20,000 nucleotides of DNA from Lentisphaeria bacterium (GTDB lineage Bacteria > Verrucomicrobiota > Lentisphaeria > JABSQK01 > JAWLHB01): NCBI GenBank assembly GCA_041690595.1, contig JAWLHB010000044.1, positions 52,657-72,656 on the forward strand, given 5' to 3'. The notes beneath the pieces were generated by a model that did no database searches, was not told the DNA's origin, and saw only the letters and a program-made list of their open reading frames with translations. The translations under genes were made by a program, and so were the position numbers. This document shows positions 3,171 to 20,000 of the stretch, piece by piece (position 1 is the stretch's first letter; every line of letters begins with the position of its first letter).

Positions 3171-3893
3171 CTATTGGTTGCCCCAGGGCGCTTCGTTCAC
3201 GCGCGCAGGATGCTGGGAGGTCGGCAGCGAGAGCAGCAGGGGCGTGTGTGTCTCAACATGCCCGTCGCAGTAAAGGATATTGCCGGTTCCGTCGTGCGGG
3301 AAGCGCACGCTGGTGTACTGCGGATGGAACCTGAAGAATCCGAGGTTGAGCGGGTGGGCCGGATCGGCGGTTTCACCAAAGGCAATCTGTGATGAAGCCT
3401 TGATGATGCTCGTCTGCCGGCGGTAAGGCGGCTTGCTCGAAAACACCTTTTCACCGCCGATGCCCCACGGGTTCATCCCGTAGTGGGCAAATTCGAAGGT
3501 GTTCCAGATTGTGCCGTAGATCGGCTTCATGGATGGACACGACAGGAATCCGTCCGGCGAAATATGCTGGAACGGTTTCTGGCGAATTGCCGGTTGCAAC
3601 TCGTCGATCATGATCTTCTGCCAGAACCTCGCCCCTTGCGAGCTGGACCAGATATTGTCCCACATGGCTGAATGAAAGGCCGGCAGGAAGCCGTCGTTGG
3701 CATCGCAATACATCTCCCATGCAAGATGCAGCTGCTTGAGGTTGTTGACGCACGATATCCGCCGCGCCGCCGAGCGCGCCTTCCCCAGCGCCGGCAACAG
3801 CATGCTCGCCAGAATCGCGATTATCGCCACGACCACCAGAAGTTCGATCAAGGTGAAAGACCGACGGATATGGTGAATTCCTGGGCTGCGCAT
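3171..3893 (-). CDS. Prepilin-type N-terminal cleavage/methylation domain protein with C-terminal H-X9-DG motif (DUF1559/SBP_bac_10-like), 240 aa
   Basis: [31 protein letters not shown]...[16 protein letters not shown] at the N-terminus; C-terminal [15 protein letters not shown]. Start moved from 3950 to the ATG at 3893, which has AAGGAG 7 nt upstream. Confidence 0.93.
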
Positions 3894-3986
3894 GCGACTA
3901 CTCCTTCCAGATGAGGTCGTTCGATCAAGGACTCTGTCGGCTTTCGCCAACTCTTGAAGTCCAGTCTTGAGCGTGATTCTGCTTGT

Positions 3987-4002
3987 GCATTAACGTTAGT
4001 GA
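3987..4002. promoter_or_regulatory. Putative LacI-family operator O1
   Basis: GCATTAACGTTAGTGA, 14/16 match to the palindrome GCATTAACGTTAATGC with a central CG; covers the -10 box of the leftward promoter. Confidence 0.72.
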
Positions 4003-4021
4003 AGAAGTCACCCTCTGTCAA
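3993..4021 (-). promoter_or_regulatory. Sigma70-type promoter for the prepilin-like gene
   Basis: Minus strand TTGACA (4021-4016), 17-nt spacer, TAACGT (3998-3993); A-rich tracts upstream of the -35; about 100 nt upstream of the ATG at 3893. Confidence 0.75.
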
Positions 4022-4130
4022 ATCATTCTCCAGAATCTTTTTCTTCATCTTTTTCACCTTCTCCCATTAAACAAGGTTGAGGCATCCCAATAACCCCATG
4101 ATCCTTACCAGAAAAATCGCAAAATAGCCA

Positions 4131-4158
4131 TTGCATGATCGTTAATGCCCGATATGGT
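4131..4158 (+). promoter_or_regulatory. Putative sigma70 promoter for lacI and the downstream operon
   Basis: TTGCAT (4131-4136), 16-nt spacer, TATGGT (4153-4158), ending 37 nt before the ATG at 4196. Confidence 0.5.
4133..4148. promoter_or_regulatory. Putative LacI-family operator O2
   Basis: GCATGATCGTTAATGC, 14/16 match to the same palindrome; overlaps the -35 box and spacer of the rightward promoter. Confidence 0.7.
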
Positions 4159-4195
4159 AATGGTGACAAGAAAAAACTGGACGACAGCCTGCCCC

Positions 4196-5233
4196 ATGAC
4201 CACCCTCAAAGATATCGCCCGGCTCACCGGCGTCTCCGTCAACACCGTTTCCCGCGCCCTGCGGGACATGCCCGATATCGGCGATGCGACGAAGGAACGC
4301 ATCCGCCGCGTCGCCGACACCCTCGACTATACCCCCAACGCCATCGCCCGCGGCCTCGTCCTCAAGCGCACCTTCGTGATAGGCGCGCTGGTCACGGAAC
4401 TTGGCAACCCATCCCGAAGCATGCTCATCCGCGAGCTGCGCCGCCTCCTCGGCAAGCAGGGTTACCAGCTCCTCATCGAGAGTTACGACACCGGCGACGA
4501 AGTCTCCGAGCGGCTCCGTACCATGACCTCCCGCGGGGTGGACGGACTTCTCATCGGCAACATCGACGGCATCCTCGCCGAGCAGGAGTATTGGCCCGAC
4601 CTCCAGTCCATCCTCCAGTCCGGCATTCCCGTCGTCGTCTTTTTCCACGCCATCACCACCAAGGTCGACAACATCGTCTGCGACTATGCCGACATCGCCG
4701 CGCAACTCACCCGACACCTGATCGAGACTCACGGTCTGCGCGGAATCGTCTATACCGGCGAGAACGCCACCTGCTCCCGCGCCATGGGTTATCGGCGGGC
4801 AATGGAGGGCGCGGGCCTCGAAGCGCAGATCGGCTTCATCCCGCTCCCCTACTGGAGCATGCGGGAAACCCGTGACGCCATGGTCGCTTACCTCCATGAT
4901 CACCCTGCTCCCGAAGCCATCGTCTGCCACAACGATCTCACCGCCATGGGCATCATGGCCGGTCTCCGCAAGGTCGGGCTGAAGGTCCCCGATGATATCG
5001 CCATCGTCGGCACCGACAATATCGAGATGGCCGAGATCGTCAACCCCACCCTGACCACCGCCGGGTTCGACCCCAACCTCATGGCCCACAAGATCTTCAC
5101 CCTGCTCACCGACCGGATCGAGCACGAAAAGAGCTCCAGAACCGCCCAACAGGTCAACCTCGACTTCAACATCTTTCTCCGCGAATCCTGCGGCTGCTCC
5201 GGCGACTATAGCCCCAAACCACCCCGCACCTGA
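4196..5233 (+). CDS. LacI/GalR family transcriptional regulator (345 aa)
   Basis: HTH MTTLKDIARLTGVSVNTVSRAL, hinge YTPNAIARGL, effector domain motifs VDGLLI, AIVCHNDLTAMG, VPDDIAIVGTDN, PTLTT and LRESCG. Start set at 4196, immediately before the HTH. Confidence 0.96.
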   Translation: MTTLKDIARLTGVSVNTVSRALRDMPDIGDATKERIRRVADTLDYTPNAIARGLVLKRTFVIGALVTELGNPSRSMLIRELRRLLGKQGYQLLIESYDTGDEVSERLRTMTSRGVDGLLIGNIDGILAEQEYWPDLQSILQSGIPVVVFFHAITTKVDNIVCDYADIAAQLTRHLIETHGLRGIVYTGENATCSRAMGYRRAMEGAGLEAQIGFIPLPYWSMRETRDAMVAYLHDHPAPEAIVCHNDLTAMGIMAGLRKVGLKVPDDIAIVGTDNIEMAEIVNPTLTTAGFDPNLMAHKIFTLLTDRIEHEKSSRTAQQVNLDFNIFLRESCGCSGDYSPKPPRT

Positions 5234-5287
5234 TCCCCCTCGCAAACCTTTTCTGCCTATACCCTGCACAACCAAGGAGACATGATC

Positions 5288-8200
5288 ATGATTCACAAGC
5301 TCGGCTTTGTCCTTGCCACGCTCTTTCTCGTCTGCCACCTGCTCCCCCCATTCGCGTCGGCGCAGGATCTCGTCCTCGCACAGGATGGCGAGGCGCGAGC
5401 GGTCATTGTACACAATGGCCACACCACCGCGGCCCCCGGCCTGCCGAGCCGCCACGTGCAGTTGGGCCAGATCAAGCCGCCGGCGGAGGAGCTCGCCCAC
5501 TATCTGAACCTCATGACCGGCGCCACCTTCCCCATCGTCGCCTCACCCGATGAAGTCGGCGACCGTGCCGCCATCATCCTCGACATCGTCGACCAGCTCC
5601 CCGGCGCCAGCGACCGCGAGAGCCGCCACCAGGCCTACCGCATCACCACCGCCCCCAACCGCCTCACCCTCACAGCGGCCTCTCCCCTGGCCCTGCACTA
5701 TGCCGTTTACGGCCTTCTGGAAGATCACCTCGGCTGCGGATTCTACACCTTCTCCCTCAAAGGGCTGCACTACAATGGTCCAGCCCATGAAGTCGTCCCC
5801 GATCGCCCTACGCTTCAGCTCCCCCCGATCGACGAGCTGCGCGAACCGGCCATCCCCAACCGCGGCATCGTCTATTGGGTGGGAAGCGATCCATGGGTCC
5901 TCAAGAACCGAGGCGGCGGCGCCCGCGGAGCAGGACCCGGCATGGCCGTCAACGCCAACCACAACCTCTATCACCTCATCCCCCCGCGCGACAGTGGCCC
6001 GGTCAAGGGTCTCTTCGCCGAGCACCCCGAATTCTACCCCCTCACCAGCGAAGGCAAGCGCCAGCCCGACTGGGCGATGGGCATTTGCGGCACCAATCCC
6101 GACCTGCCCCGCTTCCTCGCTATCGGCCTCGAGCGCGAGATCGAGAAACGCCAGGCGCGCGGCGATATCGACTGGTCCCAGCTCTTCTCGGCCGCCCAAG
6201 GCGACGGCTTCACCGGCTGCCTCTGCGAACCCTGCCGGACCCTCGTCCATGAGGAGAAGTCCGAAGCCGCCCCCCTGATCCTCGCCCTCAATCGCACCCT
6301 CGACATCATCAACGAAAGCTATCCCCAACTGAGGCTCATCACCTTCGCCTACTTCCAGACCCTCAGCGTCCCTCAGACCCTCAAGCCCCACCCCAACCTC
6401 TGGATCAACGTCGTCTCCAGCTCCCTCAGCCAGAATGCCGCCGGCGATCAGGTCGGCCCCATCGATGGCAATCCCGCCAACCGCGACTACGCCAGGGCCA
6501 TCCGCGAATGGCCGCAAGTCACCCCCGGTCGCGTAGCCGTCTGGCACTGGGACACCTATCGCCCCGAGTGGCCCTCCATCTTCCATGTCGCCGGGAACGT
6601 CCGGTACATGCATGAGCAGGGCGTCTTTGCCGCCAATCCCCAGTTCTGCGGCGGCCCGTGGACCGACCTGCTCGCCTGGCTTTACCTCAAAATGACCTGG
6701 AACCCCGATGCCAACGCGGAGGCGCTGGTCCAGCGCTTTCTCGATGACAATTACGGCCCCGAGGCCGGTCGCCACGTCTGGGAGTATCTCAAGCTCGGCC
6801 AGAAAGCCTACGAGGAATCCCTCCACGTCCCCAGCGCCGTACGCTGGAGCGGCTGGACCCCCATCCTTCGCGCCAAACTCTTCTCCCCTTCCATCCTCAA
6901 CGACATGATCAGCCAGATGGACATGGCCATCGCCGCGGCAGAACAATCCGGCAACCCCGCCTGGCTGAACAATCTGCGGGCCGCCCGCGGCCGCTCCCTC
7001 GATGTCCTCGTACTCGACGGGATCACCAATGGCGCCCCCGCCTGGGGTACCGTGGCCCATAACGGCGACATGTGGTTCGTGCCCGCCGCCGATCCGCGCA
7101 TTCCCCCACTCCTCACCAGGGCCAAGTTCGGCATCTTCGAGGAAGGCGGCGGCGAGCCCGGCGTCCTTCGCTCCACCTTCAGCTTTGCCGCCAATCATGG
7201 CGGTCCCATCGTACGACTCGACAACGACGCCGTGACGGCCGACATCTGCCCCGACCTCAAGGGCAGCATCGTCAACGGCACCGTCCGCCTCGGCGGCCAG
7301 GAGCGCCAGCTGCTGGCAGGCGACGACGCCGGCCAGGGCTACAAGGACATCCTGCCCGGCCTCCACGCCGAAATCTGGCTCCCACCCGGCATGGCCGACA
7401 ATCTCGCTCGCCGCACCAACGACGACTGGACCCATCTCTGGAGCGCCTGGGAGCCCCCCTCCTCCACCCTCCTGGAAACGGAAACTGTCCTCTCCCCCAT
7501 CTTCTACGGCTTCGACGCCAGCCGCCGCCTCCGCCGACAGGTGGAACTAACCGACAATGGCCTTCGCATCGAGCGCCAGTACACCGGCAAGCTCGACAAA
7601 CCGGAACGCTTCACCGCGCGCTGGCGCTTCGTCCTCCCCGCCCCCAACCAGGCCAAAGTCTCCGTCAAAGGCGGCGGCATCGACCGCATGCTCGATCTGC
7701 GCCACGCCGTGCCCGGCGGCATTCGCGGCGTCAAAGCCGGCGACCGCATGCCCGCCGCCGACAACATGGACGAGCGCTTCGACACCGTCATTGCCATCTC
7801 CGATGCCGAGGTCACCCGCCTCGACGTCAAGAGCGACGCCAACGAGACGATCGCCATCAAGCTCGACCGCGGCGATGGTCTCGCCGTTGTCCTGACCACG
7901 ACCAGCGCCGGCTGGGAATCGGTCGAAATCAAGCCCGTCGTCGACCGGCAGTACCTCGAAATCACCCTCGTCGGCGCGAAGTCGGTCGGCGCGGCGACCG
8001 TTGCCGAAGAGCTTGCGTTGCCTCCTCAGGAACTCTCGGCTGTCGTCGTTCCCGCCTTGCCCGCCGAAGAGAGCGTCCCAGCGGCCACCGCCGTCCAGTC
8101 CGTGGTGCAGCCCCGAGTGCGCATCACCGGGCCCACGACCGCCGTCAACGAGATCGACGGTGCCGAGCTCGTCTGGATCCCCGCCGGCTCCTTCCTCCGC

Positions 8201-8887
8201 GGCAGCCCCGCGGGGACCGGCGGCGGTGACGAGCAACCCCAGCGCCCCATCCGCCTCGATGGCTATTGGATCTACAAGTACCCCGTCACCCTCGACCAGT
8301 ATCTTGCCTTCTGCAAGGCCACCGACCGCCCCTTCAACCCGACCTGGGGCCAGGGCATGCATGCGGCTCCCGCTGGCGAAGCCGGTGCCCACGCCGCCCA
8401 GGGTGACTGGTACGAAGCCAATGCCTATGCCGGTTGGGCCGGTGCGGCCCTGCCGACGGAAGCCCAGTGGGAAAAAGCCGCCCGCGGCGAAGACGGTCGC
8501 GACTATCCTTGGGGCAACGACTGGAATGCCGACAACTGTGTCTCCATGGAGAACACCATCTACGCCTTCACCACCGGCTTCCGCCCCGTCGGCACCTATC
8601 CCGATGGAGCCAGCCCCTACGGCGTCATGGATATGGCCGGCAACGTCTGGGAATGGGTCCGCGACTGGTACGCCTACGACTACTATCAGGCCGCTCCAGA
8701 GCAGAATCCAACTGGACCCGAGGTCGGCACGCACAAGGTCCTGCGTGGTGGCTGCAGTCTCTACGATGAACGCTTCAGCCGCACCGCCGCGCGCATGGTC
8801 ATGCCGCCTCAGGTCCGCGACTGGACCGCCACCGGCTTCCGCTGCGTCGTCATAGCCCCAGCCCCTCCAGCCGCGGTCCAACCCTGA
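5288..8887 (+). CDS. Secreted multidomain protein of about 1200 aa: DUF4838-like putative glycoside hydrolase region plus C-terminal FGE-sulfatase (SUMF1/EgtB/PvdO) fold domain
   Basis: Signal peptide ending ...PFASA-QD. N-domain [18 protein letters not shown]...[15 protein letters not shown]4838-like motifs HPEFYPL..G.R, ICGTNP, QGDG...CLCEPC, ITFAY..T..P and WNPD......[14 protein letters not shown] motifs [39 protein letters not shown] and GFRC. AAGGAG at 5274-5279 favours the ATG at 5288 over 5282. Confidence 0.85.
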
Positions 8888-8889
8888 AG

Positions 8890-10251
8890 ATGCACAACCA
8901 GAACCCGACCCGATCGCCCATCGGCTTGACCCTGATCCCACCCTCGCCAGTGACGGATAAGATCACGCTGGACATCCGTGCCGGGCTGCGGAATCGAGAG
9001 GCGGCCCCTCGCCCCTTCGAGGTCGCCATCTATCTGGATGAGGAAAACCCGGCACATCGCCTGCATTATGTGCGCCTGGAGGTGGCCGGGCTGACGGCCG
9101 CCTGTGTCAAGCTTCGCTGGCCGACAGCCGCTCACGCCGGCGAGCATACGATCATTCTGGTAGTCGCCAGCGGAGCGGAAAGGTGGCGGACTCATCAGCC
9201 GCTGACCATCCTGCCCTCCGCCACTCGGTCGCCGCAGCGTCTCGGCGGCGCCTGGGCCGGTATCCGCCACTGGAGCGATACCGAAGGTCACTACTGGAAC
9301 CGCGACATCTCGCGCATGACCGACGATCACTGGCGCCAGCTGGTCCGCGGCATGCACGAGGTCGGCCTTGACGTCATCAACATCCAGGAGATCTTCCGCC
9401 ACGAGCAGTATGCCGGCAGGCATGCCATCGAGAAGGAGGGTTACCAGGGGCAGGCCTTCTACCCGTCTGCCCTCTACCCGGGACGCATGCCCATTGCCGC
9501 CTCCGATCCGCTGGAAGCCATCTTCGACGAAGCCGACACCCTCCGCATGCACGTCCTCCCCGGCATCGGCCTCTACGCTTGGTTCGACTACAGCCCCGCC
9601 TCGCTGCAATGGCATCTCGAGATCGCCGACGAGATCTGGGAACGCTATGGTCACCACCCCTCCTTCTACGGCTGGAAGATCAGCGAGGAAGGGCATGGAA
9701 GCCTCGGCTCCAGAAGCTGGGAGCCCGGCCCTCTCCTCGACCAGGATCGCCTCGATCTCGTCGACTTCTTCCGCCGCTTCGGCGACCACGTGCGCCAACT
9801 CGCCCCCGACAAGCCCGTCATGGTGGCCCGCAGCACCCACGGCATGCGCGGCGCCGAAGCGGCCTACCGGCAGCTCCTCCACCACCTCGACATCCTCTGT
9901 TCCTTCTGCTTTCACCGCATGCCCCCCGACGACATGACTGGCGAAGCGGCCGCCGACATGCTCCAGTCCCTGTGTGATGAAGCCGGCGCCCACCTCTGGA
10001 TGAATATGGAGCTCTTCCTCTTCGAAAACGGCGGCGACACCGGCAGCCCCCTCATCCCCCGCCCCATAGACCAAGTCAGGAATGACCTCCTGCGCTTCCC
10101 CAATTTCGAGAAGATCCTCTGTTACCAGTACCCCGGCCTGATGACCCACCCCCATGCCGACATCCGGCTCGGCGGTGATGCCGCGGTCAAGCTCTACAAC
10201 GACTATCGCGCCTTTCTCACTGAGACGACCAACAGGAAGCAAGATCCATGA
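8890..10251 (+). CDS. DUF4434-like putative glycoside hydrolase (TIM barrel) with an N-terminal Ig-like domain
   Basis: Motifs HWSDTEG.YWN, W..LVRGMHEVGLD, AFYPS.LY, DPLEAIFDEAD, YAWFD, YGHHPSFYGWKISEE and LWMNMELF; starts 2 nt after the upstream stop; no obvious signal peptide. Confidence 0.75.
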   Translation: MHNQNPTRSPIGLTLIPPSPVTDKITLDIRAGLRNREAAPRPFEVAIYLDEENPAHRLHYVRLEVAGLTAACVKLRWPTAAHAGEHTIILVVASGAERWRTHQPLTILPSATRSPQRLGGAWAGIRHWSDTEGHYWNRDISRMTDDHWRQLVRGMHEVGLDVINIQEIFRHEQYAGRHAIEKEGYQGQAFYPSALYPGRMPIAASDPLEAIFDEADTLRMHVLPGIGLYAWFDYSPASLQWHLEIADEIWERYGHHPSFYGWKISEEGHGSLGSRSWEPGPLLDQDRLDLVDFFRRFGDHVRQLAPDKPVMVARSTHGMRGAEAAYRQLLHHLDILCSFCFHRMPPDDMTGEAAADMLQSLCDEAGAHLWMNMELFLFENGGDTGSPLIPRPIDQVRNDLLRFPNFEKILCYQYPGLMTHPHADIRLGGDAAVKLYNDYRAFLTETTNRKQDP

Positions 10252-11933
10252 CCGCCTACCCGCACTTCACCAGACGCCTCACCCATGATCTGAACCGCCT
10301 CTGGGATTTTGTCTTCCTTCCGGAGAGCCGGCTCGACAAGCTAGCTCCCGAGGCGCTGGCCTACACCGACCGGCTGCCCGTTCCCTCGGCCTTCGACGCC
10401 CTTCCAGCCTACGCCGGCAAGCGCGGAATCGGCGTCTACCGCACCGCTGTCGAGGTCACCCCCGACACCCCTTCCGTGCTGAAGATCGGCGCCGCCGGCA
10501 TGACCGTCAAGGTCTACATCGACGGCGTGGCCACAGCCTCTCATATCGGCAGCTACACCCCCTTCGAGGTCCTCCTGCCGGCCGCGCCACACTCCCGCCG
10601 CGAGATCGTGGTGGCTACGGAAAATCGCTTCGACTACAAGCGCAATCCCCTGCAGGAGAACTTCTTCGACTTCTACAACTATGGCGGCATTTTCCGGCCG
10701 GTATGCCTGGAAGAACTGCCTGAACACCCCCTGCGACAGGCCTTTGTCACGGTCGATGACCTTCAGGCCGGCCGTATCCGCGTCGTCGTCGACCTCGATG
10801 GAGCAGGCACCGGCCTGACCTGCCGCATCGACGATGGCGACCCCCAGGCGGTCCATTGCACCACCCTGCCCGACCATCGCCTCGAATTTCACACCGTCGT
10901 GCCGAACCCCACGCTCTGGTCGCCCGCGACGCCAAATCTGCATACCCTGACGCTCGACACCGGCAGCGACGCGATGACTGTCCGCTTCGGCCTTCGCGAG
11001 GTGCGTACGGAAAATGGCCGCGTCCTCCTCAACGGCGAACCCGTCAAGCTGCTCGGCTACTGCCGCCATGAAGCCCACCCCCAGTTCGGTCCCGCCACCC
11101 CCGTCTCCCTGATGGCCGCCGACCTGCAGCAGATGCGCGACCAGGGCTGCAACTTCGTTCGCGGCTCCCACTACCAGCAGGATGCGCGCTTCCTCGACCT
11201 CTGCGACGAGCTGGGCTTCCTCGTCTTCTCCGAAAGCCTCGCCTGGGGACAGCACCAGAAGCAGCTCGCCGATCCCGCCTTTATCGAGGCTCAGCTCGAC
11301 CAGACGCGTGTCATGGTCCAGACCGACTTCAATCATCCCTCCATCATCATCTGGGGCTTCCTCAATGAAGGCGCCAGCGACGCCGAGTTCGCCCGGGGCT
11401 GCTACGAGAAGCTGATCTCCCTCATTCGCTCCCTCGATGCTACCCGCCTCGTCACTTACGCCTCCAATCGCTACCTCACCGATCTCTTCCTGGAGCAGGT
11501 CGACCTGGTCTGCTTCAACATGTATCCCGGCTGGTACTCCAGCGATCGCGATAACGAGCATCCCCTCGACGAGGTTCTCCCGCGCATAAAGGCCATGCTC
11601 GACGGCTTGCGCGAACGGGGAGTTTCCGATAAGCCCTTCATCATCTCCGAGATCGGCGCGGGCGCCATCTACGGCTGCCATGATGCCCTCGCCGGCTACT
11701 GGAGCGAAGAATACCAGGCCGAGCTGCTCAAGCTGGTCTGCCAGGAGACGGTGACCAATCCCGCCATCGCCGGCCTCGCCATCTGGCAGTTCTGCGACAT
11801 CCGCACCTACCAGGGCTCCGGGGCCCTCGGCCGCCCACGTTCCTTCAACAACAAAGGAACCGTCGACGAATACCGGCGCCCCAAGCTGGCCTGCTCCATC
11901 GTCAAAACCATCTTCTCCTCCCATGGCAACTAG
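10248..11933 (+). CDS. GH2 beta-glucuronidase-like enzyme (UidA-like)
   Basis: DFYNYGGIFRPV, RHE.HPQFG, NFVRGSHY, CDELG, NHPSIIIWGFLNE (acid/base), N.YPGWY, ISEIGA (nucleophile), WSEEYQ, and the uronate-binding N-x-K motif (FNNKG). ATGA overlap with the upstream gene. Confidence 0.9.
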   Translation: MTAYPHFTRRLTHDLNRLWDFVFLPESRLDKLAPEALAYTDRLPVPSAFDALPAYAGKRGIGVYRTAVEVTPDTPSVLKIGAAGMTVKVYIDGVATASHIGSYTPFEVLLPAAPHSRREIVVATENRFDYKRNPLQENFFDFYNYGGIFRPVCLEELPEHPLRQAFVTVDDLQAGRIRVVVDLDGAGTGLTCRIDDGDPQAVHCTTLPDHRLEFHTVVPNPTLWSPATPNLHTLTLDTGSDAMTVRFGLREVRTENGRVLLNGEPVKLLGYCRHEAHPQFGPATPVSLMAADLQQMRDQGCNFVRGSHYQQDARFLDLCDELGFLVFSESLAWGQHQKQLADPAFIEAQLDQTRVMVQTDFNHPSIIIWGFLNEGASDAEFARGCYEKLISLIRSLDATRLVTYASNRYLTDLFLEQVDLVCFNMYPGWYSSDRDNEHPLDEVLPRIKAMLDGLRERGVSDKPFIISEIGAGAIYGCHDALAGYWSEEYQAELLKLVCQETVTNPAIAGLAIWQFCDIRTYQGSGALGRPRSFNNKGTVDEYRRPKLACSIVKTIFSSHGN

Positions 11934-14267
11934 ATGAGCATCACCCTCTCCCAACCCGCGACCCGATGGATAGACGGCTTCCCCGTCGGCAACGGACGCA
12001 TCGGCGCCATGATCTTCGGCGCGCCCGATCACGACCGCCTGGCCCTCAATCACGAGGAACTCTGGCGCGGCGCCAAGCGCCACCTCGATACCCCCAAAGT
12101 CCCACCCGAACACCTCGCCGAAATCCGCCAGGCGCTCTTCGCCCGCGATTTCTTTCGCGCCCGAAAGCTCTGCGACACCTACCTCAGCGGCCCCGATCCC
12201 GTGGCGGCGGCTCCCGACCTGCAAACCATCCAGCCCTACCAGCCCGTCGGCGATCTGCGTATCACCCTGCGCGCCGGCGAATATGCCGTCGATTACGAAC
12301 GCCGCCTGGAGCTCGACACCGCCACCGCGATTGCCTGCTTCACCGTCAATGGGGTTCGCCATCGCCGCGAATGCTTCGTCTCTGTTCCCGACCAGCTCCT
12401 GATCCTGCATCTCACCGCCGACCAGCCCGGCGCCATCTCCTGCGGCATCCGCCTCGAACGCCGAGCCGATCCCGACTGTCACCTCGACTACTCGCGGGAC
12501 GACGCCACCCGCGGCTTTCGCGGGCGCTTTACCGAAGGTATCGCCTTTGCGGCTCAGGCGAGAGTGACCGCCCATGGCGGTTCCGTTAGCGAATCCGGCG
12601 CGGCCGACCTCATCGTCCGTGAAGCGGGCGCCGTCACCATCTGCGTCGCCATGGCCGTCGCCGCCGATCCCGGAGAACCGGATCCCCTTGAAGCCTGCCG
12701 CCGCATCCTGATGCAGGCTCCGGCGCGTCACGAGGAGCTGCGCGCGCGCCATCTGGCCGAGTATCAACCCCTCTGGAACCGCTGCTCGCTGACCCTGCCG
12801 TCGCCGCCAGCGGTCACCGCTCTCCCCCTCGACCAGCGTCTCCAGCGCCGAGCTGACGGCGCCGCCGATCCCGCCCTGGACGCCCTCTACTTCAGCTTCG
12901 GCCGCTACCTGCTCCTCGCCTCTTCGCGCGCCTGCCGCTTTCCCGCCACCCTCCAGGGAATCTGGAACGGCGATCTGCGCCCGGCCTGGAATGCCGACTT
13001 CCACATCGACGTCAACCTGGAGATGGCCTACTGGGCGGCGGAGGCCGTCAACTTGCCCGAATGCACCCAGCCCCTCTTCAGCTACCTCGAAGCGATGATG
13101 CCGGGCGCCCGGCAAGCCGCCCGCAACTACTACCACTGCCGCGGCATTCACATGGGTACCGGCGACCGCTGGCAGCTTCACCGTTACCTCGCCGCCGGTT
13201 GGGACATCTGGCCCACGGGCGCCGCGTGGCTCGCCCAGCACTTCTGGTGGCGCTGGGCCTATTCCCGCGACCAAACCTTCCTCCGCGACCACGCCTATCC
13301 CTTCCTCAAGGCAAACGCCGACTTCCTCCAGGATTTCCTGGTGGAGGATCCCAGCGGCTATCTGGTGACGGCCCCTTCGCAGTCCCCGGAGAACACCTTT
13401 GCCGGTGGGCCCTACCCCGTCACCTACTGCGCCGGCCCCACCATGGACACCATCTTCGCCCGCGAAATCTTCGAGCGTTGCCTCGAAGCATCCACCCTTC
13501 TCGGCGTCGATAGTGACCTGCACGAGGCATGGCGCACCATCCTGGCGGCACTGCCCCCCTTCCGGATCGGCCGCCATGGCCAACTCCAGGAATGGCTCGA
13601 TGACGAGGAGGAAAACGAGCCGGGCCATCGCCATCTCTCGCACCTGATCGGCGTCTATCCCGGTGAGACGATGACCCCCGAGCGCCTTCCCGAGTTCCAC
13701 CAGGCTGCCAGAGTCTCTCTGGAGCGGCGCTGGGCGGCGGGAGCCGGCCAATCCGGCTGGAGCCGCGCCTGGTGCATCGCCCTGTGGGCCCGCTTCCTGG
13801 AATCCGAGAAAGCGTACCGCGACCTCTCCGATCTCCTCGTCAATCACACGACGGCAAGCCTGCTCAACACCCACCCGGTCGCCACCCACGGGGGCAGGGT
13901 CATGCAGCTCGACGGCAACCTGGGCGGAACCGCCGCCATCGTCGAGATGCTCCTGCAAAGCCACGACGGCATCCTTCGCCTCCTTCCCGCCCTCCCCCAA
14001 GCCTGGCCCGAAGGCGCCGTCCAAGGGCTGTGCGCCCCCGGCGGCTGCACCGTCGACCTCGCCTGGCGAGACGGCAGCCTCTGCCAGGCGACCATCCGTT
14101 CCCCCCTGCACGACGAACTCCACCTCCGCCTGCCGCGCCCCTGCACGGTGACCGCCGGCGGCGCCGACGTCATCAACAATGAGACCAACCGCACCGACCT
14201 GATCCTCCGTTTCCACCAACTGCCGGGCATCGTCAGCCTCACCTTCAACCCGCCCCACCAATCCTGA
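11934..14267 (+). CDS. GH95 alpha-L-fucosidase-like glycoside hydrolase
   Basis: PVGNGRIGAMIFG, YQPVGDL, FGRYLLLASSR, LQGIWN, NLEMAYW, SPEN, GQLQEW, HRHLSHL, GWSRAW and QLDGNLG..AAIVEMLLQSH; directly abuts the GH2 stop codon. Confidence 0.94.
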   Translation: MSITLSQPATRWIDGFPVGNGRIGAMIFGAPDHDRLALNHEELWRGAKRHLDTPKVPPEHLAEIRQALFARDFFRARKLCDTYLSGPDPVAAAPDLQTIQPYQPVGDLRITLRAGEYAVDYERRLELDTATAIACFTVNGVRHRRECFVSVPDQLLILHLTADQPGAISCGIRLERRADPDCHLDYSRDDATRGFRGRFTEGIAFAAQARVTAHGGSVSESGAADLIVREAGAVTICVAMAVAADPGEPDPLEACRRILMQAPARHEELRARHLAEYQPLWNRCSLTLPSPPAVTALPLDQRLQRRADGAADPALDALYFSFGRYLLLASSRACRFPATLQGIWNGDLRPAWNADFHIDVNLEMAYWAAEAVNLPECTQPLFSYLEAMMPGARQAARNYYHCRGIHMGTGDRWQLHRYLAAGWDIWPTGAAWLAQHFWWRWAYSRDQTFLRDHAYPFLKANADFLQDFLVEDPSGYLVTAPSQSPENTFAGGPYPVTYCAGPTMDTIFAREIFERCLEASTLLGVDSDLHEAWRTILAALPPFRIGRHGQLQEWLDDEEENEPGHRHLSHLIGVYPGETMTPERLPEFHQAARVSLERRWAAGAGQSGWSRAWCIALWARFLESEKAYRDLSDLLVNHTTASLLNTHPVATHGGRVMQLDGNLGGTAAIVEMLLQSHDGILRLLPALPQAWPEGAVQGLCAPGGCTVDLAWRDGSLCQATIRSPLHDELHLRLPRPCTVTAGGADVINNETNRTDLILRFHQLPGIVSLTFNPPHQS

Positions 14268-14279
14268 AGAAGCACCCGC

Positions 14280-15473
14280 ATGCAACCGATACGACACCAG
14301 TCCGCACCCATCGAGCGCCTGACAGACAGCTCCGGTCACGCCTTTTTCGGCTACTACGACCTCCAACCCTGGAGCGCCAACTCTCGCTCGCATCTCTGCC
14401 ACCGCGTCCCCTTCATGAACCGCCTCCCCAACGCCGACGATCCCGCCGAACTGGGCATCGTCAGCCTCGCCGACCACCACTTCCTCCCCCTCGCTGAAAC
14501 ACAGGCCTGGAACTTCCAGCAGGGGGCCATGCTGCAGTGGAACCCCCGCAAGCCCGACGAAGAGATCTTCTACAACGCGCGCCTCAACGGCACCTTCCAC
14601 GCCGAAGCGAAGAACCTCGTCACCGGCGAACGCCGCCACTTCTCCAGGCCCTTTGCCAATGTCTCGCTCGACGGCACCCGCGCCCTGAGCGTCAACTTCA
14701 GCCGCATGGCCGACTTTCGCCCCGGCTACGGCTATGCCGGCATTCCCGATCCCTTCGCCGCCATCCCCGCACCTGACGACGATGGCATCTTCCGCCTCGA
14801 TCTCGACACCGGCGACGAAAAGTTGATCCTGCCCCTCTCCGCCATCGGCGACCTCTTCCCCAGCCACTTCGGCAAGCACATGCAGGGCGCCAAAGTCCTC
14901 GTCAACCACATCACCTTCAATCCGTCGGGCTCCCGCTTTCTCTTCCTGGCCCGCACCATGGCCATGCCCGGGCAGGATCCCGGCGGCTGGCTCACCCTCA
15001 TGGTCACCGCCGACCTCGAAGGCGAGCATCTGCACCTCTTCAAGGGCTTCGGCGGCGCCTCTCACTACTGCTGGCGCGACGACCAGCATATCCTCATCTA
15101 CGCCGACCTGCCCGGTCGAGGCAACATGCGCCTCTGTCTCGCCACCGACCAGTCCGATACCATGGAGATCCTCGACCCTCACTTCTTCGCCTTCGACGGC
15201 CACTGCAGCTACTCCCCCGACAAGCGCTTCATCCTCTATGACAGCTATCCCGACGCCGACTGCTATCGCAAGCTCCTCCTCTACGACACCACGAAGCAGG
15301 CAGGCACCCTCCTGGCCGAGCTTTACAGCGTGCGTACGGAGAGCGAAGATGCACGTTGCGACCTTCACCCCCGCTGGCACCGCGACGGCACCACCATCTC
15401 CTTCGACTCCACTCACGAAGGGGTCCGCGCGGTCTACACCATCGACGTCGGGGATCTCTGCCATGACCAATGA
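14280..15473 (+). CDS. Uncharacterised beta-propeller protein (TolB-like / distantly oligogalacturonate-lyase-like)
   Basis: Propeller-type motifs (VSLDGTRALS, FNPSGSRFLF, YSPDKRFILYD, WHRDGTTISFDS) plus FFGYYD, WNFQQGAMLQW, SHYCW, DGHCSY and RCDLHPRW; lies within the operon. Confidence 0.72.
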   Translation: MQPIRHQSAPIERLTDSSGHAFFGYYDLQPWSANSRSHLCHRVPFMNRLPNADDPAELGIVSLADHHFLPLAETQAWNFQQGAMLQWNPRKPDEEIFYNARLNGTFHAEAKNLVTGERRHFSRPFANVSLDGTRALSVNFSRMADFRPGYGYAGIPDPFAAIPAPDDDGIFRLDLDTGDEKLILPLSAIGDLFPSHFGKHMQGAKVLVNHITFNPSGSRFLFLARTMAMPGQDPGGWLTLMVTADLEGEHLHLFKGFGGASHYCWRDDQHILIYADLPGRGNMRLCLATDQSDTMEILDPHFFAFDGHCSYSPDKRFILYDSYPDADCYRKLLLYDTTKQAGTLLAELYSVRTESEDARCDLHPRWHRDGTTISFDSTHEGVRAVYTIDVGDLCHDQ

Positions 15474-17169
15474 CGCCAAGGTGATTGTCAACCAGCTCGG
15501 TTTCCGCAACGGCAGCCGCCGCAAGCTCGTCATCCTAAACGATCTCCCCGACAACCGCGGGATCATGGGCGACTGCCTCGTCTCGGTAGCCGAGCTGAAC
15601 GGCTTCTCCATGTACGCGCTCAACGACCCGCGGCAGCACCCCTTCTTCCACCAGACGTCCGCCTCTGTCGCGCCTGGCGACTTCGGGCGCTGGCTGGTGG
15701 CGGATATCTCCCGGCTCGACCGCGACGGCGTCTATCAGGCCCATTGCGGCAATAACGCCAGCCCCGTCTTCGTTATCCGCGACGATCTCTGGCTCCGCCT
15801 TCTCCCCGAGTGCATTCGCTACTTCCAGATACAGTCCTGCGGCCGCATGGTCGTCGGTTGGCACGAGGCCTGTCACCTCGACGATGGCCATATCCACGAA
15901 CTCGACCGTTACCTGCCCGCTGCCGGCGGCTGGCACGACGCAGGCGACTTCCGCAAGTGGGCCACCTCTACAGCCCTGAACGCGATCGCCTTGCTGGTCG
16001 GCCACAGGTTCTGGGCAGGGCGCGAGGCCGAGCTTGGCATCGAGCCCGGAATCCTGCTCGCCGAGGCCCTCCAGGGGGTGCACTACTTCCTCGGCATTCA
16101 GGACGAGGCGACCGGCGCGCTCTTCCAGAACATCGGTGGCGGACGCGAGGCCTGGCACGATAACCTCGACAACCGCTACACCGACAACCTCCCCCGAAGC
16201 GGCGATGAGCGGCGCATCTGGCCCACACCATGGGCCCGGCCGGCAGGCAAGTTCACGACCCTCTTCGCACTCTATGCGAATGCCCTCCGCGCCACCCATC
16301 CCGATCTCGCCGACCGCTGCCTCGCGGCAGCCCGCCGCTCGATTACCTTCGACCTCTCCGAAGGCACCATGTCGGCCGACGCCCTCCAGTGGCGCGCCTG
16401 GGGATTCCTCGAGCTGTGGCGCCATCAGCAACGCGACGAGGACAAGCATGCCGCCCTGGATGCCCTCCAGGCGCTGCTGACGCTCCAGGTCACCGACTTC
16501 ATCGGCGGGCAGGAATCCGTCCGCGGCTTCTTCCGGCAGCAAGCGGAGTCGACCCAGTACCACCGCAAGCACATCGGCGCGGACTACCCGATCTGGGTCA
16601 TCGCCGAGTTCCTGCGCGAGTGGCCCGCCCATCCACAAGCCGAACGGTGGCGGGAGGCCATACGCCTGTGGGCCGACGACTACGCCCTGGTCTTTGCCGC
16701 CCGCAACCCCTTCGGCCTCCTCCCCTACGCCCTCTATCACGACATCCCCGAAGACCACCGCGACTGCACCTACCGGCAGCTCGGCGATCACCTCTACTTC
16801 CGCTATTTCATCGCCAGCCGACGACTGGGCAGCAACGCTCGCCTCGCCCTCTCCGCCGTCGCCTTTGCCGCCGCCGCGCAAGCGCTCGACCGGCCGGAAC
16901 TGCTCGACCACGGCTACCGCCTTCTCGAGTGGATCATCGGCGCCAACCCCTTCGAGATCTCCATGATGAACGGCGTGGGCATCACCCAGCCCTGCGCACT
17001 GAGCTTTCAGATGGGCAACATTCCGGGTGGCGTCACCCTCGGCGTCGGCGGCGACGAAGAGGACATGCCCTGGTATACTCCCCATCGCTCCGCCACCGAC
17101 GAATACTACGGCTACCAGACCTCCCACTTCACGTGGGCACTCCTCGCCCTCCAGCACCAGGCGCGCTGA
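15463..17169 (+). CDS. GH9-like glycoside hydrolase with N-terminal Ig-like (CelD_N-type) domain, 568 aa
   Basis: VIVNQLGF, YFQIQSCG, HEACHLDDG, GGWHDAGDFRK, WIIGANPF.ISMMNGVG, IPGG and C-terminal TDEY. Start moved from 15238 to the ATG at 15463, overlapping the upstream gene by 11 nt. Confidence 0.85.
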   Translation: MTNDAKVIVNQLGFRNGSRRKLVILNDLPDNRGIMGDCLVSVAELNGFSMYALNDPRQHPFFHQTSASVAPGDFGRWLVADISRLDRDGVYQAHCGNNASPVFVIRDDLWLRLLPECIRYFQIQSCGRMVVGWHEACHLDDGHIHELDRYLPAAGGWHDAGDFRKWATSTALNAIALLVGHRFWAGREAELGIEPGILLAEALQGVHYFLGIQDEATGALFQNIGGGREAWHDNLDNRYTDNLPRSGDERRIWPTPWARPAGKFTTLFALYANALRATHPDLADRCLAAARRSITFDLSEGTMSADALQWRAWGFLELWRHQQRDEDKHAALDALQALLTLQVTDFIGGQESVRGFFRQQAESTQYHRKHIGADYPIWVIAEFLREWPAHPQAERWREAIRLWADDYALVFAARNPFGLLPYALYHDIPEDHRDCTYRQLGDHLYFRYFIASRRLGSNARLALSAVAFAAAAQALDRPELLDHGYRLLEWIIGANPFEISMMNGVGITQPCALSFQMGNIPGGVTLGVGGDEEDMPWYTPHRSATDEYYGYQTSHFTWALLALQHQAR

Positions 17170-17196
17170 ATCACCACCACACCGAAAGAGACCGCC

Positions 17197-19179
17197 ATGA
17201 AGACAACCCCCATGACCTGCCGGACAGCCTCCCTCCTCCTCGCCTGCCTGGCCCTCTTCACCACCAACCTCGCCGCTGACGATCTTCCCCCCGCGAATGT
17301 CCTCGCGGTCATCGCCGAAGCAACCCGCGCGAACAACGATCCGGGCGGCCGGCCGCTGCCCCTCGCTTCGAGTTGGAACAGCGGCTTCGGTTCGTGGGGG
17401 CTGACCGGCTATCCGAACTATCTCCCGCGACCACGCAAGCCGGGGTATCTGGATCTCCACACCCAGCTCGACCTCCTCCTCGCCGGGCACCACTGGCTCC
17501 CCGTCGCCCAGTTCCCGCACCAGATGAAGACCCGTGCCCAGGCCCCGGAAGGCTCTACCTGGTTCAACTACAATGGCTACTACGAGCCGTGGGATACCTT
17601 CGCGAAGTGGGGCATTCCCCTCACCATGGTGGAGACCCAGTTCGATGCCCCCCTCTACAATCAGGCCTTCACCACCGACCGGTGGGTGAAGCTGCCCCCT
17701 TCCCAGAACCCCTGCGTCATCCGCAACGGCCTCCACCTCATGGGTACCCTCGGCCCCGACGCCATCGCCACGACGGAAGGCGTCAACACCGTCCGGGTAA
17801 CCCTCCCGGGCGTCGACCAGCTCGGCGACGACTTGCGGATCTGGTTCTCCCAGGAGATTTCCGTCGGCGGTCTTCGCCTCGATGGCGAACGCTGGGACAT
17901 CACCTCCGTCGAACCCCTCGGCGGCAACGCCCTTGAACTCGACGCGGTCAAGGGCACCGTCGTCACCTTCGCCCACAAGCAACCCGCCACGGCGACCGCC
18001 ACCGGCGGCGGCGTCACCTGGGAGATTTCCCACGTCATCAGCGCCGCCGATCCCCTCGGGCCCGTCGAGCCCTGGTTCGAAGTCGGCCAGTGGTGGATGC
18101 AGGATTTCCGCCGCGACGCCTGGAATGACCTCTGGCAGCGCTACCCCCGCCCGCCCCGGATCCTCTTCCTCTCCAACAACGAAGGCCGCCTCCCCGGTGC
18201 CGACGAGCGCCACCAGTCCAAGCGCTTCGTCGACGCCCATGGCGACAAGACCGACTTCGCCTTCGGCTCCAGGATCGTGAAGGAGGGCTACGCCACCCGC
18301 TTCCAGCGCCTCTTCCAGGGCATGCGGCACGCCATGCCGGAAGCCTGGGCAAACGCCTCGACCATGGTCGCCTACAACGCCGTCTTCACCTGGCACTACG
18401 GTCGCTGGGGCGGCTGGCGCGCCAGTGCCGTGGGAGACGACCTGCCCCAGCATGTCGAGGCAACAAGCTGGGACGGCGCCTCCCCCGAGTACTACCTCAA
18501 CCCCTGGCAGAGCTGCACCGACCATACCATCTTCAGCCCGCAAACCGAATTCATGAACGTCAAGTGGCAGCTCGACCTCCTCTATCAGGAGCATCCCGAC
18601 TTCTGGTACGAGATGTCGACCTGGGACGGCTTCCCCAAGAAGCGCGAATGGTTCGCCGAACGCAACGACCCCTTCACCCCGGAGCGCTACAAGGCCTGGC
18701 TCCAGTACGGCATGTGGCTGACCCGCCCCCGCGTCCTCCGCGAGTTCCGCGACGCCACCCCATTGGAAGAGACCGGCCTCAGCCATTTTCACAAGTTCCT
18801 CGAGGCCGTCGACGACGTTCACGCCGACCCGGTCAAGACCCGCTTCTGGCGACTTGGAACCGTCGTGCCCAACACCAGCCGCCAGCACCCTTACCGGACG
18901 GCAACCCTCGAGAAGTACGACACCATCAACCGCTGGTTCAACCTCGACACCAGCCTCTCTCAACTCCCCCCTGCCGGGCAAGCCGTCAACCTCGATACCG
19001 AAGTCCCTGTCTGGGCCTTGGCCCTCGTCATCGGCCAGGCCCCCAAACGTGAGTGGCTCCTCTACGCCTACTCCCCGCGCCTCGACCGCCAGGCAGTCAC
19101 CATCACCATTCCAGACTATCGGGACATCACCCTCGACGTCCCCCAGGCCGGCCTCTTCCACCACCTCGTCGAACAGTAA
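17197..19179 (+). CDS. Secreted protein of unknown function (660 aa), Trp/Tyr-rich, possible glycoside hydrolase-like barrel
   Basis: Signal peptide (CRTASLLLACLALFTTNLAA-DD); same C-ending codon bias as the rest of the operon; starts 27 nt after the GH9 stop; motifs GRPLPLASSW, LFLSNNEG, WDGASPEYY, FWYEMSTWDG and RPRVLREFR. Confidence 0.82.
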   Translation: MKTTPMTCRTASLLLACLALFTTNLAADDLPPANVLAVIAEATRANNDPGGRPLPLASSWNSGFGSWGLTGYPNYLPRPRKPGYLDLHTQLDLLLAGHHWLPVAQFPHQMKTRAQAPEGSTWFNYNGYYEPWDTFAKWGIPLTMVETQFDAPLYNQAFTTDRWVKLPPSQNPCVIRNGLHLMGTLGPDAIATTEGVNTVRVTLPGVDQLGDDLRIWFSQEISVGGLRLDGERWDITSVEPLGGNALELDAVKGTVVTFAHKQPATATATGGGVTWEISHVISAADPLGPVEPWFEVGQWWMQDFRRDAWNDLWQRYPRPPRILFLSNNEGRLPGADERHQSKRFVDAHGDKTDFAFGSRIVKEGYATRFQRLFQGMRHAMPEAWANASTMVAYNAVFTWHYGRWGGWRASAVGDDLPQHVEATSWDGASPEYYLNPWQSCTDHTIFSPQTEFMNVKWQLDLLYQEHPDFWYEMSTWDGFPKKREWFAERNDPFTPERYKAWLQYGMWLTRPRVLREFRDATPLEETGLSHFHKFLEAVDDVHADPVKTRFWRLGTVVPNTSRQHPYRTATLEKYDTINRWFNLDTSLSQLPPAGQAVNLDTEVPVWALALVIGQAPKREWLLYAYSPRLDRQAVTITIPDYRDITLDVPQAGLFHHLVEQ

Positions 19180-19199
19180 GCCCACCGCGCCCGCCCAAA

Positions 19200-19248
19200 G
19201 TGGGGTAGACATTCCTGTCTGCCCGATCGGAAAGCGGGGTAGACATTC
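19200..19248 (+). repeat. REP-like hairpin directly after the operon, with a truncated second copy
   Basis: GTG-GGGTAGACA-TTCC-TGTCTGCCC (19200-19224; 9-bp stem with one T-G pair); partial copy GCGGGGTAGACATTC at 19234-19248; no U-tract. Confidence 0.65.
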
Positions 19249-19301
19249 GGAAAGGTGGGTCCCAAAAACCTCGGTCGAAACATCGGTGCCCTCCCCAGCC
19301 A

Positions 19302-19652: not shown

Positions 19653-19678
19653 CAGCCTCCCCCGCCTCACTCCATCCC

Positions 19679-19882: not shown

Positions 19883-20000
19883 CGACGGTGCCACTCACTC
19901 GCGTCCGACCTGGCGTGTTAAAAATTTGCCGCTTGTGGGCATTTCTGCGGAAATAAGTTCACCTCACTTTTGGATCTCCGTGATCCTCCGAATACTTTTC

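Follow-up and report, generated by a model that had tools for sequence, protein, structure and literature searches.

How do bacteria of the PVC group take up polysaccharides without a SusCD system? Passages of three papers (PMC5394234, PMC12078418, PMC11131199) call the matter unresolved, and it is raised by a locus of a Lentisphaeria genome in which a block of glycan enzymes lies next to a divergently oriented prepilin-like gene. We examined this locus in a window of 20,000 nucleotides, the whole stretch of DNA that was analyzed. The block is headed by a gene for a LacI-family repressor of 345 amino acids (aa) (4196..5233, plus strand) with PF00356 and PF13377/PF00532 matches, i.e., an HTH and a periplasmic-binding-type sensor domain, and the recognition helix VSVNTVSR; its start is that of our own gene caller, and the domain scan was run from a longer open reading frame start at 4145. 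Downstream on the same strand, Pfam and a hydrophobicity heuristic for signal peptides revealed a 1,201-aa protein with DUF4838 and FGE-sulfatase-like parts and a signal-peptide-like N terminus (5282..8887) and four proteins without such an N terminus, namely, a DUF4434 protein (8890..10251), a GH2 glycosidase (10248..11933; Pfam and NCBIfam), a GH95 protein of the alpha-L-fucosidase family (11934..14267), and a GH9-like protein (15463..17169). The nearest model for the GH2 protein is a beta-glucuronidase, with a score below the cut-off. A probable beta-propeller protein without a Pfam family (14280..15473, plus strand) was recognized by a weak TolB propeller match; it has relatives in 134 of the 351 genomes of the class and gave no match to sequences of solved structures. 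The last gene (17197..19179, plus strand) encodes a 660-aa protein, also without a Pfam family, with a signal-peptide-like N terminus; its predicted fold is similar to that of TIM-barrel glycoside hydrolases that have an inserted beta domain, and SusG was the best match in Foldseek (E 1.3e-8; TM 0.35; rmsd 13.5).

The gaps following the LacI gene are 54, 2, -4, 0, 12, -11, and 27 nt, with the first being 48 nt if the ATG at 5282 and not the alternative start at 5288 is used. No SusC/D, TonB, ABC, or MFS family was found among the 10 window proteins with Pfam and NCBIfam. The sequence-only reading had described this gene order, all seven gaps, and a block devoid of transporters, and in each respect it was accurate. 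The window stops at the contig end, 821 bases past the last gene and within repeat DNA, so that genes beyond this point are invisible. The LacI regulator and the CAZymes share one predicted operon, which, judged from its sequence, probably targets a fucose- and probably uronate-containing glycan.

The divergent gene (3171..3893, minus strand), apparently transcribed alone, encodes a prepilin-like H-X9-DG/DUF1559 protein of 240 aa, as identified by Pfam, TIGR04294, and its predicted structure. Domain scans started from a longer open reading frame start at 3950 gave matches to PF07963 (30 bits; cut-off, 21.2) and PF07596 (37.5 bits; cut-off, 23.3), and the C-terminal H-X9-DG motif was matched by TIGR04294 (24 bits; cut-off, 19), with H200, D210, and G211 nearly invariant across 119 relatives. 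Its N terminus is that of a pilin, with a basic leader of 12 residues, Phe at +1, Glu at +5, and a long hydrophobic helix. Position -1 of the peptidase site is occupied by Ser instead of Gly. Among 173 prepilin paralogues of the genome, Gly is found at this position in only 14 and Arg in 53, and residues other than Gly are mostly common also to the pseudopilin-like genes in the T2SS-like clusters of the genome. An AlphaFold2 model (pLDDT 82.5; helix at residues 15 to 65) was most similar to pilins or pseudopilins, which made up all of the top 26 structural matches (Z 2.7 to 5.4); the best of these (Z 5.4; rmsd 3.7; 117 residues aligned) does not reach the Z that the tool requires for a firm match. 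The best Foldseek match was also a pilin (E 0.2), and the matches listed for the model included no lectin, CBM, or solute-binding fold. Modeling of the pilin head in complex with the 660-aa protein yielded a score of 0.01 (mark, 0.32), which counts neither for nor against binding.

Two putative operators were identified between the prepilin and LacI genes. Site 1 (3987..4002), a CG-centered palindrome detected by a palindrome scan with shuffles, overlaps the -10 of a putative sigma-70 promoter directed toward the prepilin (3993..4021, minus strand), which has a perfect -35 at 4021-4016, a 17-nt spacer, and a weak -10 (3/6) at 3998-3993. Site 2 (4133..4148), supported by the palindrome scan and genome comparison, is located 47 nt ahead of the LacI start. 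A consensus promoter scan requiring at least 4/6 per hexamer yielded no site at the locus, and the two terminator-like hairpins found there are at chance level (2.1 expected). No RNA match was listed for this region. Each palindrome is two mismatches away from one perfect 16-mer; only four such sites exist in the 8.1-Mb genome, and the other two are coding. The four half-sites differ by four letters in total, an agreement that was reached in 0 of 2,000 dinucleotide shuffles and in 3 of 1,294 real intergenic regions. That the prepilin and operon promoters carry the same palindrome, as proposed earlier, was confirmed with a qualification: the two near-identical sites are beyond chance, but both lie inside one divergent region of 300 bp and not in separate promoters, and the window alone therefore proves little.

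Related loci in other genomes were more informative on this point. In three other genomes of the class (G056, G190, and G328), the same recognition helix is accompanied by a pair of such sites and a pair of opposed sigma-70 promoters; the promoter that faces a prepilin gene has a perfect -10 and is closely followed by an operator. The pilins paired with this repressor type and operator in these three genomes are unrelated. In G136, a LacI-prepilin-propeller operon has one perfect palindrome covering its -35, and the position of site 2 relative to the -35 matches those in G056, G328, and G136. G035 has a different helix and a different palindrome, present twice, and no such palindrome was found near the related LacI genes of G045 and G057 (N-S-V-S-R helix). 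A genome-wide operator search for other regulon members gave no convincing site: the two sites of the window, both of them among the nine training sites, scored 22.9 and 23.5, and the next best scored 19.0. Furthermore, a dedicated transporter carrying the same operator, named earlier as a competing explanation of uptake, was not detected, as the 30 best operator-like sites are not followed by any of the 51 transporter genes mapped. Taken together, it is very probable that the repressor binds both sites, so that an inducing sugar would switch on the pilin-like gene along with the enzymes.

We analyzed whether regulators and prepilins are paired elsewhere in this genome. Since a TIGR04294 search (at least 14 matches) scored only 150 of 327 candidates, we built our own prepilin profile (threshold, 78 bits or more). 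Of its 205 matches, 175 were kept, 174 of them on gene models, and the 30 left out include pseudopilins, fragments, and divergent members; the expansion of the family anticipated for a PVC genome is thus present here, with about 175 genes. The LacI set comprised 40 genes, after 1 of 41 matches was omitted for want of a gene model, and the LacI scan of the genome contigs gave three distant loci only. A prepilin is adjacent to 16 of the 40 LacI genes (2.3 expected; maximum of 10 in 2,000 draws), an adjacency far above chance, and lies within three genes of 28 of them (6.3 expected). For LacI/GntR sugar-sensor regulators in general, the adjacent fraction is 68 of 130 (7.5 expected). In 24 of the 29 cases of a LacI gene with a prepilin within five genes, the prepilin belongs to the predicted operon of the regulator. 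The prepilin is directly downstream of the regulator in 61 of 71 adjacent pairs and divergent in 4, and the layout in the window is therefore a minority form. The pairing is not universal: 62 of 174 prepilins have no LacI/GntR sensor regulator within five genes, and LacI-type sensors are few in 8 of 20 genomes rich in prepilins, both of which speak against a role in glycan capture.

Closer examination of the prepilin neighbors showed glycan domains in 33 of 126, versus 6 of 100 controls (p 6.5e-5). Counted by locus, the enrichment is weaker (20/40 versus 5/20; p 0.096), which again weighs against such a role. Large proteins without a Pfam family (no match at E 1e-6) account for 22 of the 126 sampled neighbors and 3 of the 100 controls. 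Multi-pass membrane proteins are encoded by 6 of 320 genes adjacent to prepilins versus 353 of 5,200, and we found no expanded family of membrane proteins associated with prepilins. The scarcity of transporters is a trait of the genome and not specific to pilin cassettes, since most sensor regulators that lack a prepilin have no transporter nearby either: a transporter is present within three genes of 2 of 33 such regulators (versus 3/97) and within five genes of 5 of 33 (versus 4/97). Neither are transporters depleted near prepilins (9 of 51 within three genes; 8.0 expected), and some prepilin cassettes adjoin ABC or MFS genes. The genome has matches for 6 secretins, 8 PilT-domain proteins, and 1 prepilin peptidase, as well as 4 TonB receptors and no SusD match.

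The head of the window pilin had 11 matches in the class, of which those ranked 1, 2, and 4 have close relatives of window genes as neighbors, in three genomes; in G150, for instance, the pilin gene shares an operon with GH2 and GH95 relatives and lies between them. The other 8 matches and the closest relative, P0002, which precedes a different DUF4838 gene, reside in other loci, and in a tree the window pilin did not group with the three pilins beside window-gene relatives. Within the genome, 62 of 73 pairs of similar pilins have no strongly homologous neighbor in common. The description of the pilin as substrate specific can therefore be maintained only in part, given the unrelated pilins behind the same repressor and operator and the different company of its closest relative. 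The genome-wide enrichment, the conservation of the operator in relatives, and the pilin-like predicted fold do support two other proposals of the sequence-only reading, i.e., that the linkage is regulatory and that the locus is a transporter-less counterpart of a polysaccharide utilization locus (PUL). The data are best explained by regarding the locus as one member of a system of regulator-pilin-glycosidase cassettes that extends across the genome.

What the pilin-like protein does in such a cassette can be framed as a mechanism. With its N-terminal helix inserted in the inner membrane, it would serve type IV pilus or T2SS-type machinery encoded elsewhere as an interchangeable minor subunit, and its variable head would bind the glycan of the locus or a glycan-bound partner. 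Retraction could then pull the polymer to or through the secretin, the two secreted window proteins would cut the glycan outside the inner membrane, and a few shared transporters, not linked to the locus, would import the products, whose breakdown would be completed in the cytoplasm by the five enzymes that lack signal peptides. The pilin would thereby fill the specificity role of SusD and not the pore role of SusC, which leaves the inner-membrane step unexplained. We infer glycan capture by such a subunit with a confidence that is evenly balanced. More tentatively, and with the chances somewhat against it, the approximately 175 H-X9-DG proteins may form a library of sugar-inducible, glycan-specific minor pilins on one shared retractile pilus and secretin, which would represent a PVC-wide third capture route beside SusCD/TonB and ABC systems and the identity of the "fishing rod" fibers discussed below.

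Co-regulation could also exist because the pilin serves the enzymes and not because it binds sugar. In this leading alternative, a client-specific pseudopilin might bring the large secreted proteins of the cassette to a T2SS-type machine or tether them on a fiber, both of which we consider rather unlikely. Such a role agrees with what directly follows prepilins within their predicted operons (of 115 such genes, 79 encode 600 aa or more and 58 look secreted), with the enrichment of large Pfam-less proteins near prepilins, and with the Arg at -1 shared with minor-pseudopilin-like genes of the T2SS-like clusters. In G009, the pilin gene comes immediately after a relative of the 660-aa protein, the sole full-length one detected in the class, a partial relative is present at the G150 locus, and H-X9-DG genes of Tuwongella are "often flanked" by signal-peptide genes according to a passage of PMC8567305. 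Gene neighborhoods argue otherwise: in G136, the best-matching pilin is flanked by the LacI and propeller relatives, and the 20 kb examined contain no relative of either secreted window protein, the G150 pilin sits between relatives of two window glycosidases that lack signal peptides, and the in-genome paralogue of the 660-aa protein adjoins a pilin outside the close matches of the window pilin.

A pilin-derived protein that is never cleaved or polymerized could instead act as a membrane-anchored periplasmic binding protein, holding oligosaccharides for a shared transporter or sensor. The rarity of Gly and frequency of Arg at -1 would fit, as would the cytoplasmic appearance of five of the seven window enzymes, which makes an inner-membrane step necessary. 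This account is nonetheless improbable, as the Glu+5 motif occurs in 173 of 174 prepilins (a count from a motif search that itself demanded Glu+5), and Glu+5 is required for pilus assembly; residues other than Gly at -1 are also common to pseudopilin-like genes of the T2SS-like clusters, and the structural matches cover the whole pilin beyond the helix. In its favor, sections of PMC2754498 and PMC4807772 name DUF1559 a solute-binding family, and H-X9-DG proteins of Tuwongella are described in part of PMC8567305 as fractionating unlike plain pilins. Quite improbable, too, is a pilin with no part in uptake, as an adhesin for condition-dependent attachment to particles or a passenger of mobile cassettes, with both palindromes serving the LacI operon alone. 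LacI proteins often use two operators, both palindromes share one intergenic region, and the prepilin-facing -10 is weak, with no promoter from the consensus scan. Rhodopirellula family members respond to salt, cold, and heat (a passage of PMC2754498), and attachment was proposed for the MUL2 pili of Akkermansiaceae (PMC13174399). Against this stand the 61 of 71 regulator-adjacent prepilins directly downstream on the same strand, the canonical prepilin-facing promoter of three other genomes, which an operator closely follows, and the persistence of the subfamily with parts of the window gene set through rearrangement in three genomes.

We compared glycan capture by a minor pilin with known systems. 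ComP and type IV minor pilins carry ligand specificity for a shared retractile pilus, and ComP was the second-ranked structural match of the model (Z 5.1; rmsd 3.7; 96 residues aligned), although the window pilin is only 6% identical to it, its variable head is larger, and the ligand proposed for it is a glycan instead of DNA. Like Bacteroidota PULs, the system has a local regulator, clustered secreted and cytoplasmic glycan enzymes, and one locus per glycan with many per genome; unlike them, the window locus lacks tandem susC/susD, the recurrent accessory gene is pilin-like, and the regulators counted are of the LacI/GntR types. Akkermansia MUL2 likewise ties a type IV-like pilin to the use of fucose-rich glycans in Verrucomicrobiota (PMC13174399), but MUL2 is one conserved four-gene locus with PilM, a family absent from the 10 window proteins, whereas here about 175 variable pilins each have their own regulated cassette. 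In planctomycetes, pili-like fibers bind dextran, and under the "fishing rod" hypothesis such fibers pull polysaccharide into the periplasm via "dedicated pilin-like proteins" (passages of PMC5394234 and the review PMC12078418); the genes are unnamed in these passages, which concern Planctomycetia and not Lentisphaeria. No link of this hypothesis to the H-X9-DG family was found in the literature searched, although a prior description of the genomic context is possible.

The window prepilin has the same domains as the H-X9-DG family of PVC bacteria (DUF1559/SBP_bac_10, PF07596; TIGR04294), for which passages of PMC8567305 report 41 or more genes per Planctomycetales genome and a passage of PMC10632474 reports 68 paralogues, two of them essential, in Planctopirus. 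In the portions of the H-X9-DG literature available, the functions given are "solute binding" or flanking by signal-peptide genes, and no coupling to a sugar-sensor regulator, operator, or CAZyme was found; PMC6461901 contains no occurrence of DUF1559, PulG, or pilin. DUF1559/H-X9-DG is among the largest PVC gene families of unknown function. The locus offers a named repressor, two defined operators, a likely substrate class, and a promoter geometry conserved between families of the class, and these features turn the open question of PVC uptake into direct experiments. The pairing of regulator and pilin recurs across the genome in place of sugar transporters, making H-X9-DG pilin-like proteins testable candidates for the capture of complex sugars in such bacteria. 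Should glycan specificity reside in the pilins, the variable heads would constitute a large new set of glycan-binding proteins and would mark glycan loci that tools searching for CAZyme clusters miss, as the large, Pfam-less neighbors (22/126) indicate.

The seven-gene block and the gaps described for it in the sequence-only reading were borne out by gene calls, and domain searches found no transporter family in it, as that reading had held. In order, it encodes a DUF4838 plus FGE protein, a DUF4434 protein, GH2 and GH95 enzymes, a probable propeller, a GH9-like protein and a protein of 660 aa; the predicted model of the last (pLDDT 86.7) resembles TIM-barrel glycosidases. A crude hydrophobicity test indicated a secretion signal in the first and last proteins only. 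Because of GH95, GH2 and the GH29 genes of a related locus in G150, another genome of the class, the substrate may be a fucose- and possibly uronate-containing glycan. The window is the final 20 kb of contig C44 in an 8.1-Mb genome that is 97% complete and has no second member of its family among the 351 genomes of its class. Positions 19180-20000 form a short-repeat mosaic with ~20 similar copies across the genome, and the contig breaks at a repeat, since the final ~100 bases recur with 97 to 100% identity close to where contigs C25, C32, C47 and C77 end. Positions 1-2712 (minus strand) encode a protein of ~85-aa tandem repeats with a weak InlB B-repeat match (PF18998) that extends beyond the window start; this gene, 458 nt downstream of the prepilin gene, is probably a separate unit.

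The prepilin gene (3171-3893, minus strand) and the LacI gene (4196-5233) are divergent, and each promoter had been thought to carry the same palindrome. Two matching sites (3987-4002 and 4133-4148) were confirmed, but both lie in one divergent region and not one per separate promoter; taken alone, they could therefore serve the operon only. They are two of only four genome sites within two mismatches of their perfect form, and such a matched pair was equalled by 0 of 2,000 shuffles and by 3 of 1,294 intergenic regions. The first site overlaps the -10 element, a weak one, of a promoter on the minus strand whose -35 is perfect and whose spacer measures 17 nt; this promoter was not called by the consensus promoter scan. 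Across the genome, CG-centred palindromes (at least 7 of 8 pairs) stand before 8 of 47 LacI-linked promoter regions versus 29 of 2,373 others.

In four other genomes of the class, a propeller relative adjoins a LacI whose recognition helix is identical, or almost so, to that of the window LacI. In G056, G190 and G328 the prepilin is divergent from LacI, and each genome has two sites that differ from the same core by one or two mismatches, along with a pair of opposed sigma-70 promoters; the promoter directed at the prepilin carries a perfect -10, and an operator lies just downstream of it. The pilins of these three genomes, however, fall outside the window pilin subfamily (at most 8.4 bits). 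In G136, LacI, prepilin and propeller follow one another on the same strand; the perfect palindrome before them overlaps the -35, and the left half of the second window site recurs in it. G035 has the order LacI, prepilin, 986-aa protein and propeller, with a 46% identical LacI, a different helix and, upstream, two copies of a different palindrome. As counter-examples, related LacI genes in G045 and G057 have neither an adjacent prepilin nor an operator site. Taken together, the putative operator is real and is tied to prepilins in relatives. A prepilin was also found in 14 of 20 propeller loci in relatives, which were picked by score and contig size and had no control.

All gene-order counts are based on 5,694 genes called with a purpose-built codon model. 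At the chosen cut-off the genome has 175 prepilin-like genes (174 mapped), 139 with an H-X-DG-type tail. The proposed adjacency of LacI and prepilin genes exceeds chance, with an adjacent prepilin at 16 of 40 LacI genes (2.3 expected) and one within three genes at 28 (6.3 expected). For 130 sugar-sensor regulators, a set seeded by BLAST from prepilin neighbours that includes all 40 Pfam-defined LacI genes, the counts were 68 (7.5 expected) and 97 (20.3 expected); a separate first count gave 141 candidates. The regulator precedes the prepilin in 61 of 71 adjacent pairs, with the reverse order in 6 and divergence in 4. About 90 of the 130 lack a LacI HTH and have N termini that look GntR-like, and one relative was confirmed to combine a GntR HTH with a LacI-type sensor. 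Over 61 genomes, candidate counts for prepilin motifs and sensor domains correlated (rho 0.74, kin not being independent), and 8 of 20 prepilin-rich genomes had few sensors. A second cassette on C44, extending from about 32.4 to 1.3 kb upstream of the window, comprises a regulator, a prepilin, a 1,477-aa protein, a regulator and six proteins of 578 to 1,712 aa.

In a seeded random draw of 40 prepilin loci, GH, lyase, CBM/lectin, sulfatase or DUF4838 domains occurred in 33 of 126 neighbours versus 6 of 100 genes in the 20 loci used as controls (p 6.5e-5, genes sharing a locus not being independent); per locus the contrast was 20/40 versus 5/20 (p 0.096). Several families of 1,000 to 1,400 aa that match GH123_N or GH42 weakly, or Pfam not at all, are found repeatedly beside prepilins and are candidate new glycan-active families. 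The purpose-built gene caller also gave a giant ORF of 18,067 aa (C17:23770-77973, minus strand).

Pilin heads, the soluble parts of these proteins, are highly diverse in this genome (median pairwise score, 1.4 bits), and 11 of 73 similar pilin pairs share a strongly homologous neighbour (0.43 expected), with none shared in 62. The window head had 11 matches in 7 of 350 other genomes; its nearest clusters are most frequent in Verrucomicrobiota and Lentisphaerota, and one homologue is labelled Lentisphaerae, which makes Lentisphaeria the probable class of the genome. The top match (G136) adjoins relatives of LacI (51%) and the propeller (61%), the second (G009) adjoins relatives of the 660-aa protein (60%) and GH9 (66%) with a GntR-type regulator, and the fourth (G150) lies within a GH29-GH29-GH2-pilin-GH95-propeller-GH9 run with 61 to 72% identity to window genes. 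The tandem GH29 fucosidase genes of this run (L048:6943-9534; 425 aa each, identical scores) either were duplicated recently or arose as an artefact of assembly. The remaining eight matches are found elsewhere; most have a regulator or a large protein with a glycan domain nearby, and one has an MFS gene. The closest relative of the window pilin (57% identical) precedes another DUF4838 gene. In the tree, the three linked pilins form one clade with two unlinked ones and the window pilin stands apart. The pattern amounts to co-inheritance of pilin subfamily and gene set, short of strict orthology.

Transporter searches, covering TonB, ABC, MFS and SSF families, matched 4 TonB receptors, 31 ABC permease domains, 22 MFS_1 and 3 SSF in 51 genes; SusD had no match and MFS_2 added no gene. 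Of these genes, a single one adjoins a prepilin (3.0 expected) and nine lie within three genes (8.0 expected), and predicted multi-pass proteins are rarer beside prepilins (6/320 versus 353/5,200). Transporters occur near 2 of 33 regulators without a prepilin versus 3 of 97 with one; as the former mostly lack transporters too, this lack is a trait of the genome as a whole. No mapped transporter or pilus gene lies behind any of the best 30 of 52 operator-like sites, so uptake by the pilin is not refuted by a dedicated transporter behind the same operator.

LacI very probably controls operon and pilin gene jointly. The pilin model (pLDDT 82.5, pTM 0.80) has an N-terminal helix of 51 residues, and every one of its best 26 structural matches is a type IV pilin or a pseudopilin, with alignments reaching the H-X9-DG strands (best match: Z 5.4, rmsd 3.7, 117 residues); Foldseek gave no match at E below 0.001. 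Shared machinery exists in the genome, as shown by 6 secretin, 20 PilB/GspE/PilT-type and 1 prepilin peptidase match. Eight PilT matches exceeded the cut-off, and paired PilT domains occur at three loci (C3:40415-42622, C4:75894-78481 and C10:77459-80343), as one gene with two domains and two tandem gene pairs. At -1 the window pilin has Ser, and Gly is rare in the family and in the T2SS-like clusters of the genome. Residues other than Gly, most commonly Arg, are general at this position among its prepilins, T2SS-like cluster genes included, which points to a prepilin peptidase with relaxed specificity; the only peptidase match (C11:11189-12445, 418 aa) seems long for a member of its family.

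We put at about even the chance that the pilin-like protein takes part in glycan capture as a minor pilin specific to its locus. That it serves as an export or display adaptor is a less probable reading, though one to be taken seriously. A role as a membrane-anchored binding protein appears unlikely, and adhesion or hitchhiking would be about as unlikely.

The fishing-rod hypothesis of polysaccharide uptake via pilus-like fibres in planctomycetes (PMC5394234, PMC12078418), the H-X9-DG/DUF1559 expansion (PMC8567305, PMC10632474) and planctomycete CAZyme clusters are already in print, as is the Akkermansia mucin utilisation locus MUL2 (PMC13174399). The literature searched, which covered few subscription papers, yielded no link of H-X9-DG/DUF1559 proteins with sugar regulators, with operators or with CAZyme loci. 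The locus in the window is genuine and represents a new form of glycan utilisation locus, for whose co-regulation the sequence evidence is good, and the putative role of its pilin in glycan uptake would be a directly testable proposal.
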